The notes: generated by a model from the letters alone, not told the origin. 60,672 nt of DNA from Candidatus Omnitrophota bacterium (GCA_029560465.1 JAKQKX010000097.1:1-60672), one strand, 5' to 3'; numbered from the stretch's first letter, positions 2,857 through 59,650 are shown. Translations and numbers: made by a program.

Positions 2857-3702
2857 ATGCCTCCGTTAGATACAGTGAGTAAAGCATATCGAGTGCCGTT
2901 CAGTTCTTTTATTCCATTTCTGCTGATTTCGTTCGGCTTGGCTTGGGGGATTCTTGGTTTATACATTTTTTTCCCGGAAAAAATGGTGTCGGGGTTTGGT
3001 CAGATCACCGGCAACCATCCACTCTTTTTTCTGGCGGTGTACGCGCCTGCCATCGCGGCGTTCATTCTTGTTGCCCGCACCGTTGGCCTTGCCGGCCTAC
3101 GGCGCTTCCTCGCCCGAGCTTTGCTCTGGCGCTGCGGCGCGGGCTGGTATGCCTTTCTGATCATTGGCATTCCGTTGATCTTCATTGGCGGTTCCGCGCT
3201 TAGAGGGAACCTTTTTTCGGAACCGTTTCCCTTTGCGTCCTTTCAGACTCTGCTCGTGGCGTTAGTCCTTGCCGCCATCAAAGGCCCGATCGAGGAGTTC
3301 GGCTGGCGTGGTTTCGCGCTTCCTCTTCTGCAAAGGAAGTTCGCCCCGATCTGGGCCGGGCTGATTCTTGGTGTCATATGGGGGGTGTGGCATCTTCCAG
3401 CGTTTCTGTTGAGCGGAACCCAGCAGAGCGAGTGGTCGTTCACTGCGTTCTTTGCTGGATGCTTAGCGATAAGCGTTATCGTGACGGCACTGTTCAATAG
3501 GTCATATGGCAGCATTCTGCTGTCGGCAGTTTTTCATTTCCAGTTGATGAACCCGATCTTTCCCGATGCCCAACCCTACGACACGTACCTGTTAATCATC
3601 GTCGCCAGCCTAATCGTCTGGTTGAACCGCAAGGATATGTTTACAAAGGACGGGGCAGTTGTGGACGTCGTTCCGAACCAGAGGAAAGTGACCGGTGGCT
3701 AA
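2857..3702 (+). CDS. CPBP family intramembrane glutamic endopeptidase (CAAX protease/Abi-like)
   Basis: Polytopic. Motifs EEFGWRG (EExxxR), GVWHLP (FxxxH-type) and AVFHFQLMN (HxxxN). Confidence 0.85.
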   Translation: MPPLDTVSKAYRVPFSSFIPFLLISFGLAWGILGLYIFFPEKMVSGFGQITGNHPLFFLAVYAPAIAAFILVARTVGLAGLRRFLARALLWRCGAGWYAFLIIGIPLIFIGGSALRGNLFSEPFPFASFQTLLVALVLAAIKGPIEEFGWRGFALPLLQRKFAPIWAGLILGVIWGVWHLPAFLLSGTQQSEWSFTAFFAGCLAISVIVTALFNRSYGSILLSAVFHFQLMNPIFPDAQPYDTYLLIIVASLIVWLNRKDMFTKDGAVVDVVPNQRKVTGG

Positions 3703-3768
3703 CCATGTCATGCACTCGGAGGGGAATTCCGCTTCGCTCCATTCCCTCCGGTGATGGCCACGGTGGAC
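3697..3768 (+). other. attC-like site F with degenerate R' (R'' GGCTAAC 3697-3703, R' GGTGGAC 3762-3768)
   Basis: The long imperfect stem CATGTCATGCACTCGGAGGGGAAT / ATTCCCTCCGGTGATGGCCACG has bulges. R'' is complementary, with 1 mismatch, to cassette-start TTAGGC at 2054-2059. R' reads GGT instead of GTT. Confidence 0.5.
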
Positions 3769-4107
3769 CATTATCCCCCTCAATGGGAACCCCCTTCAGG
3801 AGCTGGACCCTTCCGAAGAAATTGAATTCCTGCTTGTTCCCAAAAACGGCATCAAATCTTTCCTCCTGTGCGAGAAAGAAAACGGCACCCACATCGCCGC
3901 CGGCGTGTGGTATGTTTTCTGCCTGGGCGCGTGAGTTTCTTCAGCTTCCCAAAGACTGACTTTGTGATTTGATACAGGAAATAAACTAAAAACTCTTGAT
4001 ATACGAAGTTCCGTATAAGTGATATTACAGGGCAAATGGATACCATTTTATAAAAAACAGGGCTATAATAATGGAAAAACAGCGTAAAATTGGATTATTC
4101 TAATGGT

Positions 4108-4158
4108 AAGCAACAAAATTAACCAGGGAATGGATAAGTCGTTAAAGAATTGTTAGCG
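4108..4158 (+). other. attC-like site F2 (R'' AAGCAAC 4108-4114, R' GTTAGCG 4152-4158)
   Basis: Short nested palindrome: GCAACAA..TTAAC / GTTAA..TTGTTAGC. R' and its flank are the exact 10-nt complement of the R'' region at 4969-4978. Confidence 0.5.
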
Positions 4159-4163
4159 ATGAA

Positions 4164-4967: not shown

Positions 4968-4969
4968 TT

Positions 4970-5034
4970 CGCTAACAAAATGCTCTACCCGACTGGCGAA
5001 AAAACCCGCCAGCCGGTAAGCATCGGCGATAAGG
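4970..5034 (+). other. attC-like site G with non-canonical R' (R'' CGCTAAC 4970-4976, R' GATAAGG 5028-5034)
   Basis: Stem ATGCTCTACCCGACTGGCG / CGCCAGCCGGTAAGCAT with bulges. R'' is the exact complement of GTTAGCG at 4152-4158. Confidence 0.6.
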
Positions 5035-5044
5035 AGAAATAAAT

Positions 5045-5377
5045 ATGGATGATATTATCGCAGTGGCGGTAATACTAAAAAATAAGAAGAGACAGTACTT
5101 TTTAACTTGGGGGCGAATTCAGGACAATATTGATTCATCTGAAGTTGAGAAGCTGGTTTTGGAATATAGCAAAATTTGTGAATTGGGATCAGAACCGATG
5201 AAGGCGCAAATATGCAGAACCTTACAAGAGGCTAAAAAAGCGCCATATTTCTATGAATATTTTTTTGTTATGGCGCAGAAAACAATTCCTTACGGGAAGA
5301 CATATGAAAAGTGGCGAGAAAAGATGAATAAGAAAATGAAAAACGGAAAAGAAATATATTATCTTGGAAAACAATAG
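5045..5377 (+). CDS. Hypothetical protein (cassette ORF)
   Basis: SD AAGGAG. 110 aa, AT-rich, with a lysine-rich C-terminus. No family recognised. Confidence 0.5.
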   Translation: MDDIIAVAVILKNKKRQYFLTWGRIQDNIDSSEVEKLVLEYSKICELGSEPMKAQICRTLQEAKKAPYFYEYFFVMAQKTIPYGKTYEKWREKMNKKMKNGKEIYYLGKQ

Positions 5378-5448
5378 CCTTATATCAAGTCACTACAGCG
5401 GACGACGCTTCGCCACCTGCGGCGGCTCGCGCCGCCGCTGAGTTCCGA
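5378..5448 (+). other. attC-like site H (R'' CCTTATA 5378-5384, R' GTTCCGA 5442-5448)
   Basis: CCTTAT is the exact complement of cassette-start ATAAGG at 5029-5034. The inner stem CAGCGGACG / CGCCGCTG is shared with sites B and I. Confidence 0.5.
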
Positions 5449-5559
5449 GGGACAGGGTATCGAGGTGGTTTGATTCATAAGCGAATTAGGTGCATGTCGC
5501 CGGAATTATTACGGAGTTCGGATTACGGGATGTGTTTAAAAATTTTGAGGTAAAAATTT

Positions 5560-6252: not shown

Positions 6253-6750
6253 TTGAACGCAATGGTTTCTAGTATGTTGGCTCAAATGAGTCGTACGCGC
6301 ATCTCGAAGGATGACTTCACGGAAGCGTCTGAGTACTTAAACGCAATGCGCGGTCGTCAAGCGGTTGTGGTCAAACGAGCACTTCTCTTTGCTGCCATAG
6401 TTGCCTATGCAAGACCCTTTACGGAAAACGAAGACAAATTGGGGAGGGCAACGACATTCCTAAAGGCTAGCCTATCTAGGATTCTGAATCAATCGGAGCA
6501 AGCTCAGCATGACAAGCTGCTTTCTCTTCGTGACGAGGCGCTTGCCCACTCACAGTTTGATCGAAAACCCATCGTTCGCGTCAGAGGATCGAGTTCGGGC
6601 TTTTTGATGAAAGGCCGGCCATTCGATATTCTTGCCGAGCCAATCAATCTGGAGCTGTTTGGTTCATTGTGTTCAAAAATGGAGCGGCATTGTGTTAATC
6701 AACTCTTTGACCTTAATCGCAAACTCGATGCTCTCAAATCAAAGTCTTAA
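6253..6750 (+). CDS. Hypothetical protein with HEPN-like Rx4-6H motif (cassette ORF)
   Basis: 165 aa and helical. Motif LLSLRDEALAHSQFDR. The ORF-track start is TTG; the ATG at 6262 is an alternative. Confidence 0.45.
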   Translation: MNAMVSSMLAQMSRTRISKDDFTEASEYLNAMRGRQAVVVKRALLFAAIVAYARPFTENEDKLGRATTFLKASLSRILNQSEQAQHDKLLSLRDEALAHSQFDRKPIVRVRGSSSGFLMKGRPFDILAEPINLELFGSLCSKMERHCVNQLFDLNRKLDALKSKS

Positions 6751-25237: not shown

Positions 25238-26740
25238 ATGAAAAAACTCGTCCTTTTACGGCGCATTTCACAGGCTCTGTTTTTAGGGCTTTTTGTTTAT
25301 ATCCTCTGGTCCACGACCTACCCTCTGGGCGGCGGGATTTCCCCGAGAATCCTGTTTAATCTGGACCCTGCGCTCATGATTTTTACTGCTGTGAGCGAAC
25401 GGCTCCTCCTCCCGGGCCTGGTGTTTGCCTTTCTTATGATCGGAGCGACTTTTATCCTGGGCCGTTTTTTTTGCGGGTGGGTGTGCCCTTTGGGAACGGT
25501 CATCGACGCCTTCGGTTCTCTCCGGAAGAAGAACGCGCGTGACCTGTCCTGGCTGAACAACCGGCGCCTGAAAAATATCAAATACGTGTTTTTAGGGATA
25601 TTTTTCCTGCTGGCCGTGGCTGGCTTTCAGGCGGTTTGGGTGATGGACCCTGTTGTGACCGCGGCCCGGGTTGTGTCCCTCAACGTGATTCCCGCGGTGA
25701 CCTTCGCGGCGGACCGCGGTTTTGTCTGGCTGATTCAGCGGTTCGGCCTTTACGGAGGATTTTATGATTTTTACCGCGGTCTGAAGGCGGGAGTTCTGGG
25801 GGTGAGGATCGTGTTTTTCGCCAACGCCTTGATCACGTTTATATATTTTCTGGTTATCGGGTTTTTATCTTTGGTGGTCGCGCGGCTGTGGTGCCGCGCG
25901 CTGTGCCCTTTGGGCGCGCTTTACAGTTTGGTCGCGCTGTTTTCGCGGCTGGAACGCAAAGTCGACGCCTGCAACGGGTGCGGGCTGTGCCGCCGGAACT
26001 GCCGCATGGGCGCGATCCGGGAAGAGGGGGATTACGATAAAGGGGAATGTGTTTTATGCATGGACTGCGTTTATGACTGCCCGACGGGCAAGACGCGGTT
26101 TGCCTTTAAAGGAGCGGCCGTGCCGGCCTTAGCCGCGCCGGCTGCGGGAAGCAAGGGCATGACCAGGCGGTCGTTTTTGTGGCTCATGGCCTCTTCGTTC
26201 TTGTCTTTGGGCGGGCGATGGGCGCCCGCGGCCCGGCGGCGTGTTATCCGGCCGCCCGGCGCCGTGGAAGAGGCCGGATTTTTAAATACCTGCGTGCGCT
26301 GCGGGAACTGCATGAAGGTATGCGTCACCAACGGGCTTCAGCCGGTGATGCTGGAATCCGGTTGGCAGGGGCTCTGGACGCCCCGGCTGGTCCCGGAGAT
26401 CGGGTACTGCGAGTATAACTGCACCCTTTGCGGACAGGTTTGCCCGACGGGTGCGATCCCGCGGCTTTCCCGGGAAGCGAAAAAACAGGTTCGGATGGGG
26501 CTGGCGCGCGTGGACCGTTCCCTCTGCCTGGCCTGGGCCCATAACGAGCCGTGCATTGTGTGTGAAGAGCATTGCCCGGTCGCGGACAAGGCTATTAAGC
26601 TGGATATTGTCCGGGTTCACGGCCGGGATGTTTCCCGTCCTGTGGTGGACCGGGCGTTGTGCATCGGCTGCGGGATCTGCCAGAATAAATGCCCGGTCAG
26701 CCCTGAGCGGGCGATCCGGGTGGAGGCCTTTGTCCCATGA
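25238..26740 (+). CDS. Membrane polyferredoxin: NapH/MauN-like N-terminal half fused to NapG/MauM-like C-terminal half
   Basis: FFCGWVCPLGT and WCRALCPLGALY lie in helices. Several CxxCxxCxxxCP clusters. The internal MTRRSFLW motif is at nt 26159. RPPGAVEEAGFLNTCVRCGNCMKVC. Confidence 0.7.
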   Translation: MKKLVLLRRISQALFLGLFVYILWSTTYPLGGGISPRILFNLDPALMIFTAVSERLLLPGLVFAFLMIGATFILGRFFCGWVCPLGTVIDAFGSLRKKNARDLSWLNNRRLKNIKYVFLGIFFLLAVAGFQAVWVMDPVVTAARVVSLNVIPAVTFAADRGFVWLIQRFGLYGGFYDFYRGLKAGVLGVRIVFFANALITFIYFLVIGFLSLVVARLWCRALCPLGALYSLVALFSRLERKVDACNGCGLCRRNCRMGAIREEGDYDKGECVLCMDCVYDCPTGKTRFAFKGAAVPALAAPAAGSKGMTRRSFLWLMASSFLSLGGRWAPAARRRVIRPPGAVEEAGFLNTCVRCGNCMKVCVTNGLQPVMLESGWQGLWTPRLVPEIGYCEYNCTLCGQVCPTGAIPRLSREAKKQVRMGLARVDRSLCLAWAHNEPCIVCEEHCPVADKAIKLDIVRVHGRDVSRPVVDRALCIGCGICQNKCPVSPERAIRVEAFVP

Positions 26741-48406: not shown

Positions 48407-48724
48407 ATGAAAAAATGCCCGTTTTGCGCGGAAGAAATCCAGGATGAGGCCATCAAATGCCGGTATTGTAATGAGTTCCTGCAGGGATCGGCCAGCAAGC
48501 AAAAGGCCGCGTGGTTTTTCAGTAAGACTTTTTTGGTGCTTGGGTTTTGTTGTGTCGGCCCGCTCATCCTTCCGCTCGTCTGGATCCATCCGCAATACAG
48601 CCGGAACATCAAGATCGCGGTTTCCCTGGTGATCATTGCCATAAGCTGGATTCTGGGGAAAGTGGTTATGCATTATATGGAATATATTTCTTCCTATTAT
48701 AATACTATTTTTCAATCCATTTAA
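48407..48724 (+). CDS. Zinc-ribbon domain membrane protein
   Basis: [25 protein letters not shown], followed by two helices. Confidence 0.65.
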
Positions 48725-48751
48725 GATTCTGCCCCGTAAGCCATGCGTTCA

Positions 48752-49128
48752 TTAATTCGCACGGAAGACTTATGTTCGCTGCTTGCTCCGTAAGTCTTGT
48801 GCTCTCTTGAATATCGTTGGCGTTTCACGCAAACTCAACCCCGGTAAAAAGCTCCGGGGTTAATTCGCGCGGAAGACTTACGTTCGTCGCTTGCTCCGTA
48901 AGTCTTGTGCTCTCTTGAATATCGTTTGCGTTTCACGCAAACTCAACCCCGGTAAAAAGCTCCGGGGTTAATTCGCACGGAAGACTTATGTTCGCTGCTT
49001 GCTCCGTAAGTCTTGTGCTCTCTTGAATATCGTTGGCGTTTCACGCAAACTCAACCCCGGTAAAAAGCTCCGGGGTTAATTCGCACGGAAGACTTATGTT
49101 CGCTGCTTGCTCCGTAAGTCTTGTGCTC
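48752..49128 (+). repeat. Tandem repeat, 108-bp unit x 3.5, each unit with three hairpins
   Basis: Unit starts at 48752, 48860, 48968 and 49076. Copies 1, 3 and 4 are identical; copy 2 differs at 5 positions. Hairpins: GCAC-gg-AAGACTTATG / CGTAAGTCTT-GTGC; TTKGCGT-ttc-ACGCAAA; AACCCCGG-taaaaagct-CCGGGGTT. No ORF spans the repeat. Confidence 0.9.
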
Positions 49129-49139
49129 ATTAAAACCCC

Positions 49140-49168
49140 TTGCATTTTATGGAATTTTTAGCTAGAAT
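49140..49168 (+). promoter_or_regulatory. Sigma-70-like promoter candidate (TTGCAT-17-TAGAAT) for glyQS
   Basis: -35 at 49140-49145 and -10 at 49163-49168, immediately after the last repeat copy. Confidence 0.45.
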
Positions 49169-49216
49169 ATGGCCTCAATTAAACCTTCTGTTGTCTTTTA
49201 GATAAGAATCATTCCT

Positions 49217-50527
49217 ATGCCAGCATCCGTTGATATGGATAAAATTGTTTCCCTGTGTAAACGCCGGGGTTTTATTTTTCAATCTTCAGAAATCTATGGC
49301 GGCTTAGGGAGCGCTTGGGATTACGGCCCTCTGGGCGTTGAGCTGAAACGTAATGTGAAAGCCGCCTGGTGGAAAGCCGTGGTGCACGACCGTGACGATG
49401 TCGTCGGGTTGGATGCCAGCATCCTTATGCACCCCATGACATGGAACGCGTCCGGGCACACGGAGAATTTTACCGACATCTTGGTGGATTGCAAACAGTG
49501 TAAAAAACGTTTCCGGCAGGACCATGTCGGGGAAGAATGCCCGAATTGCGGCGCCCGGGATTTCACGGACGGCCGGGCTTTTAACCTGATGCTGAAAACG
49601 CACTTGGGGGCGGTTGAAGATGAGGGGAGCGTCGTGTATCTCCGCCCGGAAACGGCCCAGGGTATTTTTGTGAATTTCCCGAATGTTGTTGATGTGACCC
49701 GGCGGAAGCTTCCGTTCGGGATCGCGCAAATCGGGAAATCGTTCCGTAATGAAATCACGCCGGGGAACTTTACCTTCCGGACCCGCGAATTTGAGCAGAT
49801 GGAGATCGAATACTTCACCCGGCCTGATGACGCCCAGGCCTGCCACGAACAGTGGATTGAGGCGCGTCACCGGTGGTACCTCGACCTGGGGATCCGGGAA
49901 GAGAATCTCCGGTTGCGGCCGCACGGCACAGACGAGTTGGCCCATTACGCCGCCGGGTGCACGGACGTGGAATATCTTTTTCCGTTCGGGTGGTCTGAGC
50001 TGGAAGGCATTGCCAACCGGACCGATTATGATCTCCGCCAGCACGCCCAGTTTTCCGGGAAAGACCTCTCTTACCAGGACCTGGCCACAAACGAGAAATT
50101 CTACCCGCATATTATTGAGCCGTCGGGCGGGGTTGACCGGGCCACGTTGGCTTTTATCGTTGACGCGTATCATGAAGAAGAGGTGAACGGCAATCTCCGC
50201 GTGGTTTTAAAGCTTCACAAATCTCTTGTCCCGATCCAGGTCGCGTTTTTGCCTTTGTTGAAGAAAAACGCCGATATCGTGACGCTGGCCAAGGCCCTCA
50301 AGAAGGATCTGCAGAAGGATTTTACCTGCGCTTATGATGACACGGCTTCCATAGGAAAACTTTACCGTCGGCAGGATGAGATCGGGACGTTTTATTGCGT
50401 CACTGTGGATGTCCAGTCTCTGGAAGACAAACAGGTGACAGTCCGGTCCCGTGACACGATGACCCAGGAGCGGGTGCCGGCCGACCGGTTGCGGGAGTAT
50501 TTGTTGAAACACCTCAAAGAGTCATAA
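49217..50527 (+). CDS. glyQS: Glycine--tRNA ligase (homodimeric class II type)
   Basis: RRGFIFQSSEIYGGLGSAWDYGPLG, YLRPETAQGIF and FRNEITPGNFTFRTREFEQMEIEYF. Confidence 0.9.
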   Translation: MPASVDMDKIVSLCKRRGFIFQSSEIYGGLGSAWDYGPLGVELKRNVKAAWWKAVVHDRDDVVGLDASILMHPMTWNASGHTENFTDILVDCKQCKKRFRQDHVGEECPNCGARDFTDGRAFNLMLKTHLGAVEDEGSVVYLRPETAQGIFVNFPNVVDVTRRKLPFGIAQIGKSFRNEITPGNFTFRTREFEQMEIEYFTRPDDAQACHEQWIEARHRWYLDLGIREENLRLRPHGTDELAHYAAGCTDVEYLFPFGWSELEGIANRTDYDLRQHAQFSGKDLSYQDLATNEKFYPHIIEPSGGVDRATLAFIVDAYHEEEVNGNLRVVLKLHKSLVPIQVAFLPLLKKNADIVTLAKALKKDLQKDFTCAYDDTASIGKLYRRQDEIGTFYCVTVDVQSLEDKQVTVRSRDTMTQERVPADRLREYLLKHLKES

Positions 50528-57862: not shown

Positions 57863-57936
57863 GCGCCTGTAGCTCAGATGGATAGAGCGCGGCTCTCCTA
57901 AGGCCGGCGTGGGTGGTTCGAGTCCACCCAGGCGCA
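57863..57936 (+). tRNA. tRNA-Arg (anticodon CCT)
   Basis: A 74-nt cloverleaf folded by hand. Acceptor GCGCCTG/CAGGCGC. D arm GCTC-AGATGGATA-GAGC. Anticodon stem CGGCT/GGCCG with loop CTCCTAA. T arm GGTGG-TTCGAGT-CCACC. Discriminator A. No encoded CCA. Confidence 0.9.
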
Positions 57937-58208
57937 CTTTTTGTGAACGCGTTGGAACGTATTGTCTGAAAGCCGCTGGAAAAAATCTTCAAAAATCATT
58001 GACTCCGTTATATCTATGTGTGAAAATATTTCACGTTTTAATTTTCTAACCCAGTGATGATTCCAATCGGACACAGAAGGGAGGGGGATGCTTATTTTAT
58101 CGTCGGGGATCATCAAGCTCTGGTCTAATGAAGCCATTAGCTAGACCATAATATATCTAGTTTATTATATAATTGCCGGTTCGCCGGCGGCTAGAAGGAG
58201 ATTACAAT

Positions 58209-59619: not shown

Positions 59620-59650
59620 AGCCCCTGCTTAAAAAGCAGGGGCTTTTTTT
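59620..59650 (+). terminator. Rho-independent terminator after the OMP gene
   Basis: AGCCCCTGCTT-aaaa-AGCAGGGGCT followed by TTTTTTT. Confidence 0.8.

Follow-up and report, generated by a model that had tools for sequence, protein, structure and literature searches.

The 60,672-nt stretch of DNA analyzed here, called the window throughout, comes from a Candidatus Omnitrophota bacterium (GCA_029560465.1 JAKQKX010000097.1:1-60672) and carries, between a zinc-ribbon gene and the glycyl-tRNA synthetase (GlyRS) gene glyQS, a tandem array of a 108-bp unit. The locus raises the question of what kind of element this array is and what it might do between two sets of genes. The Omnitrophota are uncultivated, and to our knowledge almost nothing is known of their transcript ends or of the insulation between their neighboring operons. 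An earlier sequence-only reading recognized no known element in the array and proposed a tandem small-RNA array, a structured 3′ untranslated region (UTR), or a protein-binding array. Among these the structured 3′ UTR is best supported, a protein-binding array keeps a small probability, and a tandem small-RNA array with a promoter in each unit found no support. We describe a lineage-specific, single-locus array of a structured non-coding unit, made of three hairpins and an invariant UUAAUUCG, and tentatively suggest, by analogy, that it is a sense-strand 3′ UTR or intercistronic hairpin array that serves as a partial terminator and a protector of mRNA 3′ ends. As such, it would work like the arrays of repetitive extragenic palindromes (REPs) and bacterial interspersed mosaic elements (BIMEs) of Escherichia coli while standing outside that family.

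Tandem Repeats Finder (TRF) reported one strong array at positions 48752-49128, with a period of 108, 3.5 copies, 96% matches, and a score of 719, and the alignment placed the copy starts at 48752, 48860, 48968, and 49076, where the sequence-only reading had put them. All copies are given on the + strand and are also matched by a covariance model. Unit 1 (48752-48859, 108 bp, with a covariance-model match of 77.6 bits and further supported by single folds and the consensus fold), unit 3 (48968-49075, 108 bp), and the terminal half unit (49076-49128) have the same sequence, and unit 2 (48860-48967, 108 bp) is the sole variant. It differs at exactly five positions, the count claimed earlier: A10>G, T22>C, C28T29>TC, and G68>T. 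The first two lie in the stem of hairpin 1, where on the + strand an A-U pair becomes G·U and a U·G pair becomes C-G; the double change sits in the loop of hairpin 1, and G68>T turns a G/A mismatch of hairpin 2 into a T-A pair. A diverged partial copy had been claimed at the left edge of the array, and the sequence at 48725-48751 (GATTCTGCCCCGTAAGCCATGCGTTCA, + strand) does read as a degenerate 3′ half of hairpin 1, which it resembles at 17 of 27 positions by eye. All six frames have stops in every unit of the window, in line with the claim that there is no open reading frame (ORF). A coding repeat was rejected, as the frames are closed in the unit of the related contig L057 as well and relatives have units of 106 and 109 bp.

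The proposed three-hairpin fold was borne out both by folds of single sequences and by comparison with relatives. The 108-bp unit consists of two 54-bp halves, module A and module B. Module A starts with the single-stranded TTAATTC and continues with hairpin 1, whose stem of 14 bp (4 + 10) has a GG bulge and whose loop measures 14 nt; module B is composed of hairpins 2 and 3. Hairpin 2 has an upper stem of 7-8 bp with a UUC-type loop; below it, separated by a 5-nt internal loop, relatives reveal a 4-bp lower stem, TTGA/TCAA, that the sequence-only reading had missed. In hairpin 3, CCCCGG and CCGGGG enclose a 9-nt loop; the extension of this stem to 8 bp takes two A's that compete with the lower stem of hairpin 2. 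In unit 1 the parts lie at 48752-48758 (TTAATTC), 48759-48802 (hairpin 1), 48807-48838 (hairpin 2 with its lower stem), and 48839-48859 (hairpin 3). The three hairpins lie at 48867-48910, 48915-48946, and 48947-48967 in unit 2 and at 48975-49018, 49023-49054, and 49055-49075 in unit 3. The terminal half unit contains only TTAATTC and hairpin 1 (49083-49126), and such a lone module A closes every array in every lineage. An apical 2-bp mini-stem in the loop of hairpin 1, present in single-sequence folds only, is too small and too poorly aligned to be claimed.

The structure appears to have been maintained by selection. When the window unit is compared with those of the 105-109-bp lineages, the 8-nt TTAATTCG is identical at 8/8 positions, and identity is 87-93% in the stem of hairpin 1, 89-95% in the upper stem and loop of hairpin 2, and 71-76% in the hairpin-3 region, compared with 47-71% in the loop of hairpin 1 and 25-50% in the linkers. 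The four-fold degenerate sites of glyQS are 59-69% identical between branches, so that the loops and linkers drift at about the neutral rate. The lower stem of hairpin 2 has an identity of only 25-63% and yet is compensated, appearing as TTGA/TCAA, CTGA/TTAG, and CTAA/TTAG. For hairpin 1, 21 distinct copies from few lineages were aligned by a covariance model, an alignment that is fitted to the model, and in it 95.6% of the cells pair and 7 of the 14 pairs change on both sides. On four of five measures 0/500 shuffles reach the observed values, and slid controls are 22-55% paired. The pair 22-40 runs through the series C-G, U·G, U-A. In L057 the upper stem of hairpin 2 is CTGCG/CGCAG in place of GTTTGCG/CGCAAAC, and L057 and the related L046 have a hairpin 3 of CCCCGC/GCGGGG, with one compensated pair. 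All three hairpins are thus kept through compensatory change, and the combination of conserved stems with drifting loops argues against a neutral minisatellite.

The strand on which the unit is read is less clearly marked. Folded as single sequences, the + and − strands are about equal (z-scores near −7). For the consensus, the + strand has the more favorable fold by about 2 kcal/mol, and it alone is predicted to form the lower stem of hairpin 2. Among the non-Watson-Crick cells of hairpin 1 in five lineages, read on the + strand, there are 11 G·T and 3 A·C, or about 6 and 2 independent events. A + strand RNA, in the same sense as all neighboring genes, is therefore weakly favored from the sequences. 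The sequence-only reading had argued for the same direction; the direction appears right, but the argument rested on two substitutions, and even the wider data, from seven lineages, are no more than suggestive.

The same locus was recovered from many assemblies, through contigs coding for a GlyRS and a zinc-ribbon protein that are identical or related. In the window's own species the array has 3.5 units in the window and 7 units, with an A-A junction, in L002, a contig with identical GlyRS, so that the number 3.5 is specific to this assembly. Elsewhere in this species L001 has a 100-N gap (3378-3477), and the contigs L003, L004, L051, and L058 break inside the array. Units of 109 bp with an N gap (about 6441-6540) are found in L029. 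The contigs L036-L045 have 2.5 units of 106/108 bp, apart from L039 and L044 with 1.5 units; these two share a linked single-nucleotide polymorphism in the glyQS leader, which the 2.5-unit contigs lack. L052 has 2.5 units of 105 bp. The single 3.35-Mb contig L057 has 2.2 units of 159 bp, each composed of two hairpin-1 modules, hairpin 2, and hairpin 3, and L046 has one module A after a hairpin-3 homologue, with hairpin 2 missing. The multi-copy state is thus present in 5 of the 6 hairpin-1-bearing lineages. The left edge of the array differs per lineage, with a partial hairpin 1 in the window and a partial hairpin 2 or 3 in relatives. An intergenic tandem unit whose copy number varies between strains (3.5 vs 7; 2.5 vs 1.5) is what characterizes a minisatellite or variable-number tandem repeat (VNTR).

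Outside the array-bearing lineages, L054 (GlyRS 88%) has no array and shows a short spacer with fragments resembling the flanks and a promoter, L055 and L056 (GlyRS 81%) have a canonical terminator and a promoter, and L048 (GlyRS 76%) has one plain hairpin and a promoter. The same gene order without the array occurs in three more distant lineages. By GlyRS identity the array-bearing lineages form three branches at 91-93%, with L054 outside, which makes the element no younger than the ancestor of this small clade. For L046, an ancestral single-copy state was considered and rejected, because its sister L057 (GlyRS 94.9%) has hairpin 2 and an array; the single module of L046 is probably the result of a collapse.

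The sequence-only reading had allowed that the copy number might be an assembly artefact. The tandem repetition is real, as the L057 contig shows, but the exact number in the window's species is doubtful. N runs or contig ends fall exactly inside the array in L001, in L029, and in L038 (about 3589-3663), and copy numbers from short-read assemblies of the locus are therefore unreliable. In several public metagenome-assembled genomes (MAGs) such assemblies are broken or collapsed by the array, and the copy numbers there are not to be trusted. Three further observations concern individual contigs. Two hairpin-1 modules are adjacent without module B in L002 (3482-3589) and in L057 (2566-2669), with the junctions CTCATTAATTCGC and CTCATTAATCGC, respectively, and in L057 this doublet is now part of the repeating 159-bp unit. 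In L051 (3318-3370), from a 99%-identical strain, the left junction is GCCATGTGCACGG instead of GCCATGCGTTCATTAATTCGCACGG, so that, barring a contig-end artefact, even strains of this one species differ at the array's left edge. The L029 record (CAZAXH010000001.1) is titled "uncultured Planctomycetales bacterium", a label that looks inconsistent with its GlyRS, which is 98% identical to a cluster representative named Candidatus Omnitrophota.

The unit was found at this locus only. Its segments do not occur elsewhere in the window and have 0 matches in shuffled sequence. With filters off, the covariance model of hairpin 1 detected only the four copies in the window and only array copies in 16 related loci. 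An exact-arm pattern searched in species-representative genomes returned 30 chance palindromes in unrelated taxa and, as the sole other match, the L029 locus orthologous to this one. In a metagenome collection a degenerate hairpin-1 pattern picked out one contig, again with the same locus, a weak test since the collection evidently lacks the JGI samples that carry the array. Viral contigs, plasmids, and phages gave no match. Within the limits of these searches the element is single-locus, and the suspicion that it might be a dispersed repeat of the REP type or a transposable element of the miniature inverted-repeat kind (MITE) brought up no copy at another locus.

Nor did the unit match a known family, as the sequence-only reading had supposed. 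Searches against Rfam 15 at E ≤ 10 for the region, at gathering thresholds for the whole window, and at E ≤ 1 for three related loci found no known RNA family in the array; the only whole-window match is a tRNA-Arg elsewhere. ARAGORN found no tRNA or tmRNA in the array. A CRISPR had been dismissed, correctly, since the whole 108-bp period repeats at 96% identity and there are no unique spacers. The REP/BIME tag, GTAG/CTAC or CGTC/GACG, is not present at the ends of the hairpin-1 stem, whose foot is TTCGCAC...GTGCTC, and CGTC appears only inside the loop of copy 2. The units are strictly head-to-tail, without the alternating orientation of BIMEs, and the three hairpins are unrelated in sequence. 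The arms of hairpin 1 can be read as MITE-like inverted repeats bracketed by TTAA...TTAA within short, AT-simple flanks, and L054 resembles an empty site. Multiple loci, as expected of a MITE, were not found in the window, the related loci, the genome and metagenome pattern searches, or among phages, plasmids, and viral contigs. Nine proteins encoded around the locus were scanned, and they are of the housekeeping kind. Three further candidates were rejected. GTTTCACG in hairpin 2, which we take to be one parS half-site, lacks the other half, and L052 has GTTTCCCG; by inspection this is not a parS-like site. An integron attC was likewise rejected by inspection, there being no GTTRRRY/RYYYAAC core sites, and a decoy with CsrA-type GGA sites is at odds with the modules of L057, in which the GGA bulge is not kept.

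The array lies at an operon boundary. Its flanks are as claimed, with a zinc-ribbon protein upstream and a class-II GlyRS downstream, and homologues of the flanking proteins carry the name Candidatus Omnitrophota. The genes, all on the + strand, run from a PolX-type polymerase through a two-gene Fe-S/FAD oxidoreductase pair, panB, the zinc-ribbon gene, and the array to glyQS, ppdK, and a sigma-70 family gene. The zinc-ribbon gene (48407-48724, 105 aa, from the ORF list, with a weak Pfam match to Zn_ribbon_3) closes the panB cluster, and the repeat region follows immediately after its stop codon TAA (48722-48724). The hydrophobic C-terminal half of its product suggests a membrane protein, and it has more than 3000 homologues, mostly named Omnitrophota zinc-ribbon proteins. 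Downstream, glyQS occupies 49217-50527 (+ strand, ATG at 49217). The boundary is evident from the array-free relatives, since L055 has a canonical terminator and a promoter at the same place and L048 has one hairpin and a promoter.

Between the last hairpin and glyQS lies the right junction TCATTAAAACCCC (49127-49139, + strand), identical in six hairpin-1-bearing lineages; folds of GGGG...CCCC constructs indicate that it can pair with the preceding GGGGTTAAT into a longer helix enclosing the last hairpin 1. It is followed by TTGCAT (49140-49145), a 17-nt spacer, and TAGAAT (49163-49168), all on the + strand. These hexamers are kept while the spacer sequence changes, also in the array-free L048 and L054, and TTGCAT-N17-TAGAAT is the probable glyQS-ppdK promoter. 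A simple promoter scan misses it because TTGCAT matches TTGACA at only 3 of 6 positions. Together with an approximately 45-nt 5′ leader (ATGGCYTCAATTAAACCTTCTG..., 49140-49216), this promoter is by eye far better conserved than four-fold sites (0.59-0.69), and no strong Shine-Dalgarno motif is visible by eye before the glyQS ATG; the leader may carry a regulatory signal of its own.

Canonical U-tract terminators occur elsewhere in the genome, at 59620-59650 and after ppdK, but the terminator scan found none between the zinc-ribbon gene and glyQS. Hairpin 3 is in all lineages a GC-rich stem-loop of 6-8 bp such as an intrinsic terminator has. It had been claimed that no U-tract follows the hairpins, and indeed hairpin 3 is followed by TTAATTCG, in RNA a tail with 4 U in 8; the scan, which requires at least 5 U in 8, reported nothing within the arrays of the window, L057, and L037. 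Promoter scans of the same three arrays found no promoter-like site inside them on either strand. An internal TTGAAT-N17-CAAACT was rejected as a promoter because it is absent in relatives and its TTGA pairs with TCAA in the covarying lower stem of hairpin 2.

We suggest that + strand transcription makes the array the tail of the panB/zinc-ribbon mRNA. Each hairpin 3 with its UUAAUU might be a weak intrinsic terminator or pause site, with a cumulative effect, and the stable hairpins might block 3′→5′ exonucleases and so stabilize the upstream mRNA. The array would then limit read-through into the glyQS-ppdK promoter, which begins 11 bp past the last hairpin, and more copies would mean stronger insulation. 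The units could be homogenized, gained, and lost by unequal recombination or replication slippage, giving species-specific units and copy-number differences between strains; the homogenization of units, the hybrid units in L044, and the unit loss or gain in L039 and L002 fit such a process.

Several facts weigh against a partial terminator and 3′-end protector. Hairpin 3 lacks a proper U-tract, having only UUAAUUCG, and fails the terminator scan, and the closest array-free relative, L054, has no terminator evident by eye at the site. The strand asymmetry is not statistically significant, the counts of covariation draw on few lineages and on an alignment that the model itself shaped, and the whole-genome check for dispersal covers one MAG only, with the exact-arm pattern. 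Moreover, a plain exonuclease barrier or terminator has no obvious need of three different hairpins, an invariant 8-nt single-stranded motif, and conservation of stem sequence. The invariant UUAAUUCG and the sequence-conserved stems may instead reflect recognition by a specific protein or nuclease, and the explanations that invoke a trans-acting RNA or a DNA site are therefore kept. A more far-reaching proposal, to which we give little credence, is a new single-locus, concertedly evolving structured-RNA module with copy number as its regulatory variable. Such a module could act as a heritable "rheostat" of the transcriptional leak from panB to glyQS-ppdK or as a precursor that is cut at UUAAUUCG into several identical small RNAs or into protein decoys acting in trans.

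Cleavage of the array, for example at the single-stranded UUAAUUCG, into stable RNAs of about 108 nt would make the units small RNAs in trans or decoys for an RNA-binding protein, with copy number as dosage. This appears unlikely, although the unit resembles a small RNA in size and shape, with two hairpins followed by a 3′ GC hairpin and UU. No lineage departs from the AU-rich single-stranded motif between the hairpins, stem sequence is conserved more than pairing alone requires, most copies of hairpin 1 carry a purine bulge GGA, and tandem small-RNA arrays exist, such as NsiR1 with 12 copies (PMC4030482). However, the unit has no conserved promoter on either strand, unlike the NsiR1 copies, and its loops, the usual seed regions, are the least conserved parts. 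AGA or AGAG replaces the GGA bulge in modules of L057 and one copy of L052, weakening the case for a CsrA-type site, and the element is restricted to one locus in a few closely related lineages. The conserved arms and variable centers could alternatively belong to palindromic operators, so that the array would be a DNA element of protein sites or cruciforms, a regulatory or insulating region upstream of the glyQS promoter. The last hairpin-1 module always adjoins the −35 region through the invariant TCATTAAAACCCC, and the center of the last palindrome, counted from the coordinates, is some 70 bp upstream of the inferred start, where activators typically bind. We nevertheless regard this as improbable: the spacer between the arms of hairpin 1 varies by about 13-15 nt (by our own count) and in sequence, which on duplex DNA would rotate the half-sites; the internal modules are hundreds of base pairs from the promoter; and the compensated changes, the U·G intermediate, and the excess of G·T on one strand better fit a folded single strand.

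It is also conceivable, though doubtful, that the array has no function of its own and is a minisatellite, selfish or nearly neutral, that arose from a small TTAA-flanked palindromic MITE-like insertion or a chance duplication of the spacer and was amplified by slippage. Hairpin 1 is bracketed by TTAA...TTAA (TTAATTCG ... TCATTAA), the closest outgroup L054 looks like an "empty site" that retains CCCGCAAATCCAG and GATAAACCCC, the left edge has eroded differently per lineage, the copy number is unstable, and L046 is down to one module without hairpin 2. Against this, the stems and the 8-nt motif are conserved clearly beyond the neutral level, in contrast to the drifting loops and linkers; each of the three hairpins shows compensatory changes; no second copy appeared in the window, the related loci, one MAG searched genome-wide for exact arms, the metagenome scan, or the viral contigs, plasmids, and phages; and the multi-copy state has been retained in all but one of the hairpin-1-bearing lineages. 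An unusual leader of glyQS that senses tRNA-Gly in a T-box-like manner or binds GlyRS is very improbable. The array is directly upstream of glyQS, and the GGA in the hairpin-1 bulge of most copies is a glycine codon. However, neither the T-box model nor any other Rfam family matches the window region at E ≤ 10 or the relatives at E ≤ 1; with the conserved promoter downstream of it, the array falls outside the primary glyQS leader; several L057 modules have lost the GGA; and close relatives do without the array. That the tandem structure or the copy number is an artefact of short-read metagenome assembly is scarcely credible. The window's species has been assembled with 3.5 units, with 7, with a 100-N gap, or broken, and L029 also has an N gap, but independent assemblies from many samples agree on tandem units, the 3.35-Mb single contig has 2.2 × 159 bp, and the unit variants give a consistent copy order, so that the doubt is limited to the exact number in the window's species.

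Whatever its function, the locus provides a clean natural series at one operon boundary, from no unit through one module to 1.5-7 units, with the stems kept by compensation. If the array is a partial terminator and 3′-end protector, hairpin arrays of the REP/BIME functional type can arise and persist at one locus without a mobile-element family, and a change in copy number would be a simple means of tuning the read-through between housekeeping operons.

A few observations concern other parts of the window. A second, weak tandem repeat at 25896-25940 (18 bp × 2.5 copies, 77% matches) lies inside the ORF 25238-26740. A tRNA-Arg(CCT) gene (57863-57937) is located in a 536-bp spacer and is preceded by TTGACA- and TATAAT-like hexamers. 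The spacers 581-1434, 3703-4163, and 4968-5559 each exceed 450 bp without ORFs of at least 120 aa, and at least two of these three long spacers seem to hold short unannotated ORFs, to judge from an AGGAG-like site followed by an ATG near 655 and another near 5045.

According to previous research, the tandem-REP array REP325 of E. coli, between yjdM and yjdN, is a partial terminator and a stabilizer of the upstream mRNA and gives a ladder of truncated transcripts (bioRxiv 10.64898/2026.03.23.713779). The Omnitrophota array resembles REP325 and other REP/BIME arrays in that it consists of tandem stable hairpins between co-oriented genes, is non-coding, has no canonical U-tract, and varies between strains in presence or copy number. 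REPs are dispersed around the genome, and within BIMEs they alternate in orientation. They have a high genomic copy number and a GTAG or CGTC tag (PMC3733652) and are linked to RAYT transposases (PMC3337134). In contrast, the unit described here occurs at one locus, without a tag, as three unrelated hairpins in direct repeats, and with no known link to a transposase.

NsiR1 of heterocystous cyanobacteria is an example of tandem small-RNA repeats in which each repeat has its own promoter (PMC4030482). Like NsiR1, the array is made of a head-to-tail structured unit beside one particular gene and is conserved across related genomes, but its units have no conserved promoter. Mycobacterial interspersed repetitive units (MIRUs) are intergenic tandem units of tens to about 100 bp in operon spacers, with copy-number polymorphism generated by slippage or unequal recombination; they occupy dozens of loci and are not defined by conserved hairpins. 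The array shares with them the intergenic tandem units, the strain-variable copy number, and the presumed slippage or unequal recombination, but it is single-locus and has been kept across species with compensatory evolution of its stems. BrickBuilt of Porphyromonas gingivalis, whose 23-nt units lie in a MITE present 19 times per genome with inverted-repeat ends, has been discussed as a transcriptional modulator (PMC4596501). It is likewise a species-restricted intergenic tandem repeat without spacers, whereas the unit here measures 105-159 bp, occupies one locus, and, apart from hairpin 1 itself, has no demonstrated terminal inverted repeats. The array fits the loose class of intergenic minisatellites or VNTRs and, although it departs from REP/BIME arrays in dispersal, tag, and orientation, it is these that it would most resemble in the way it works.

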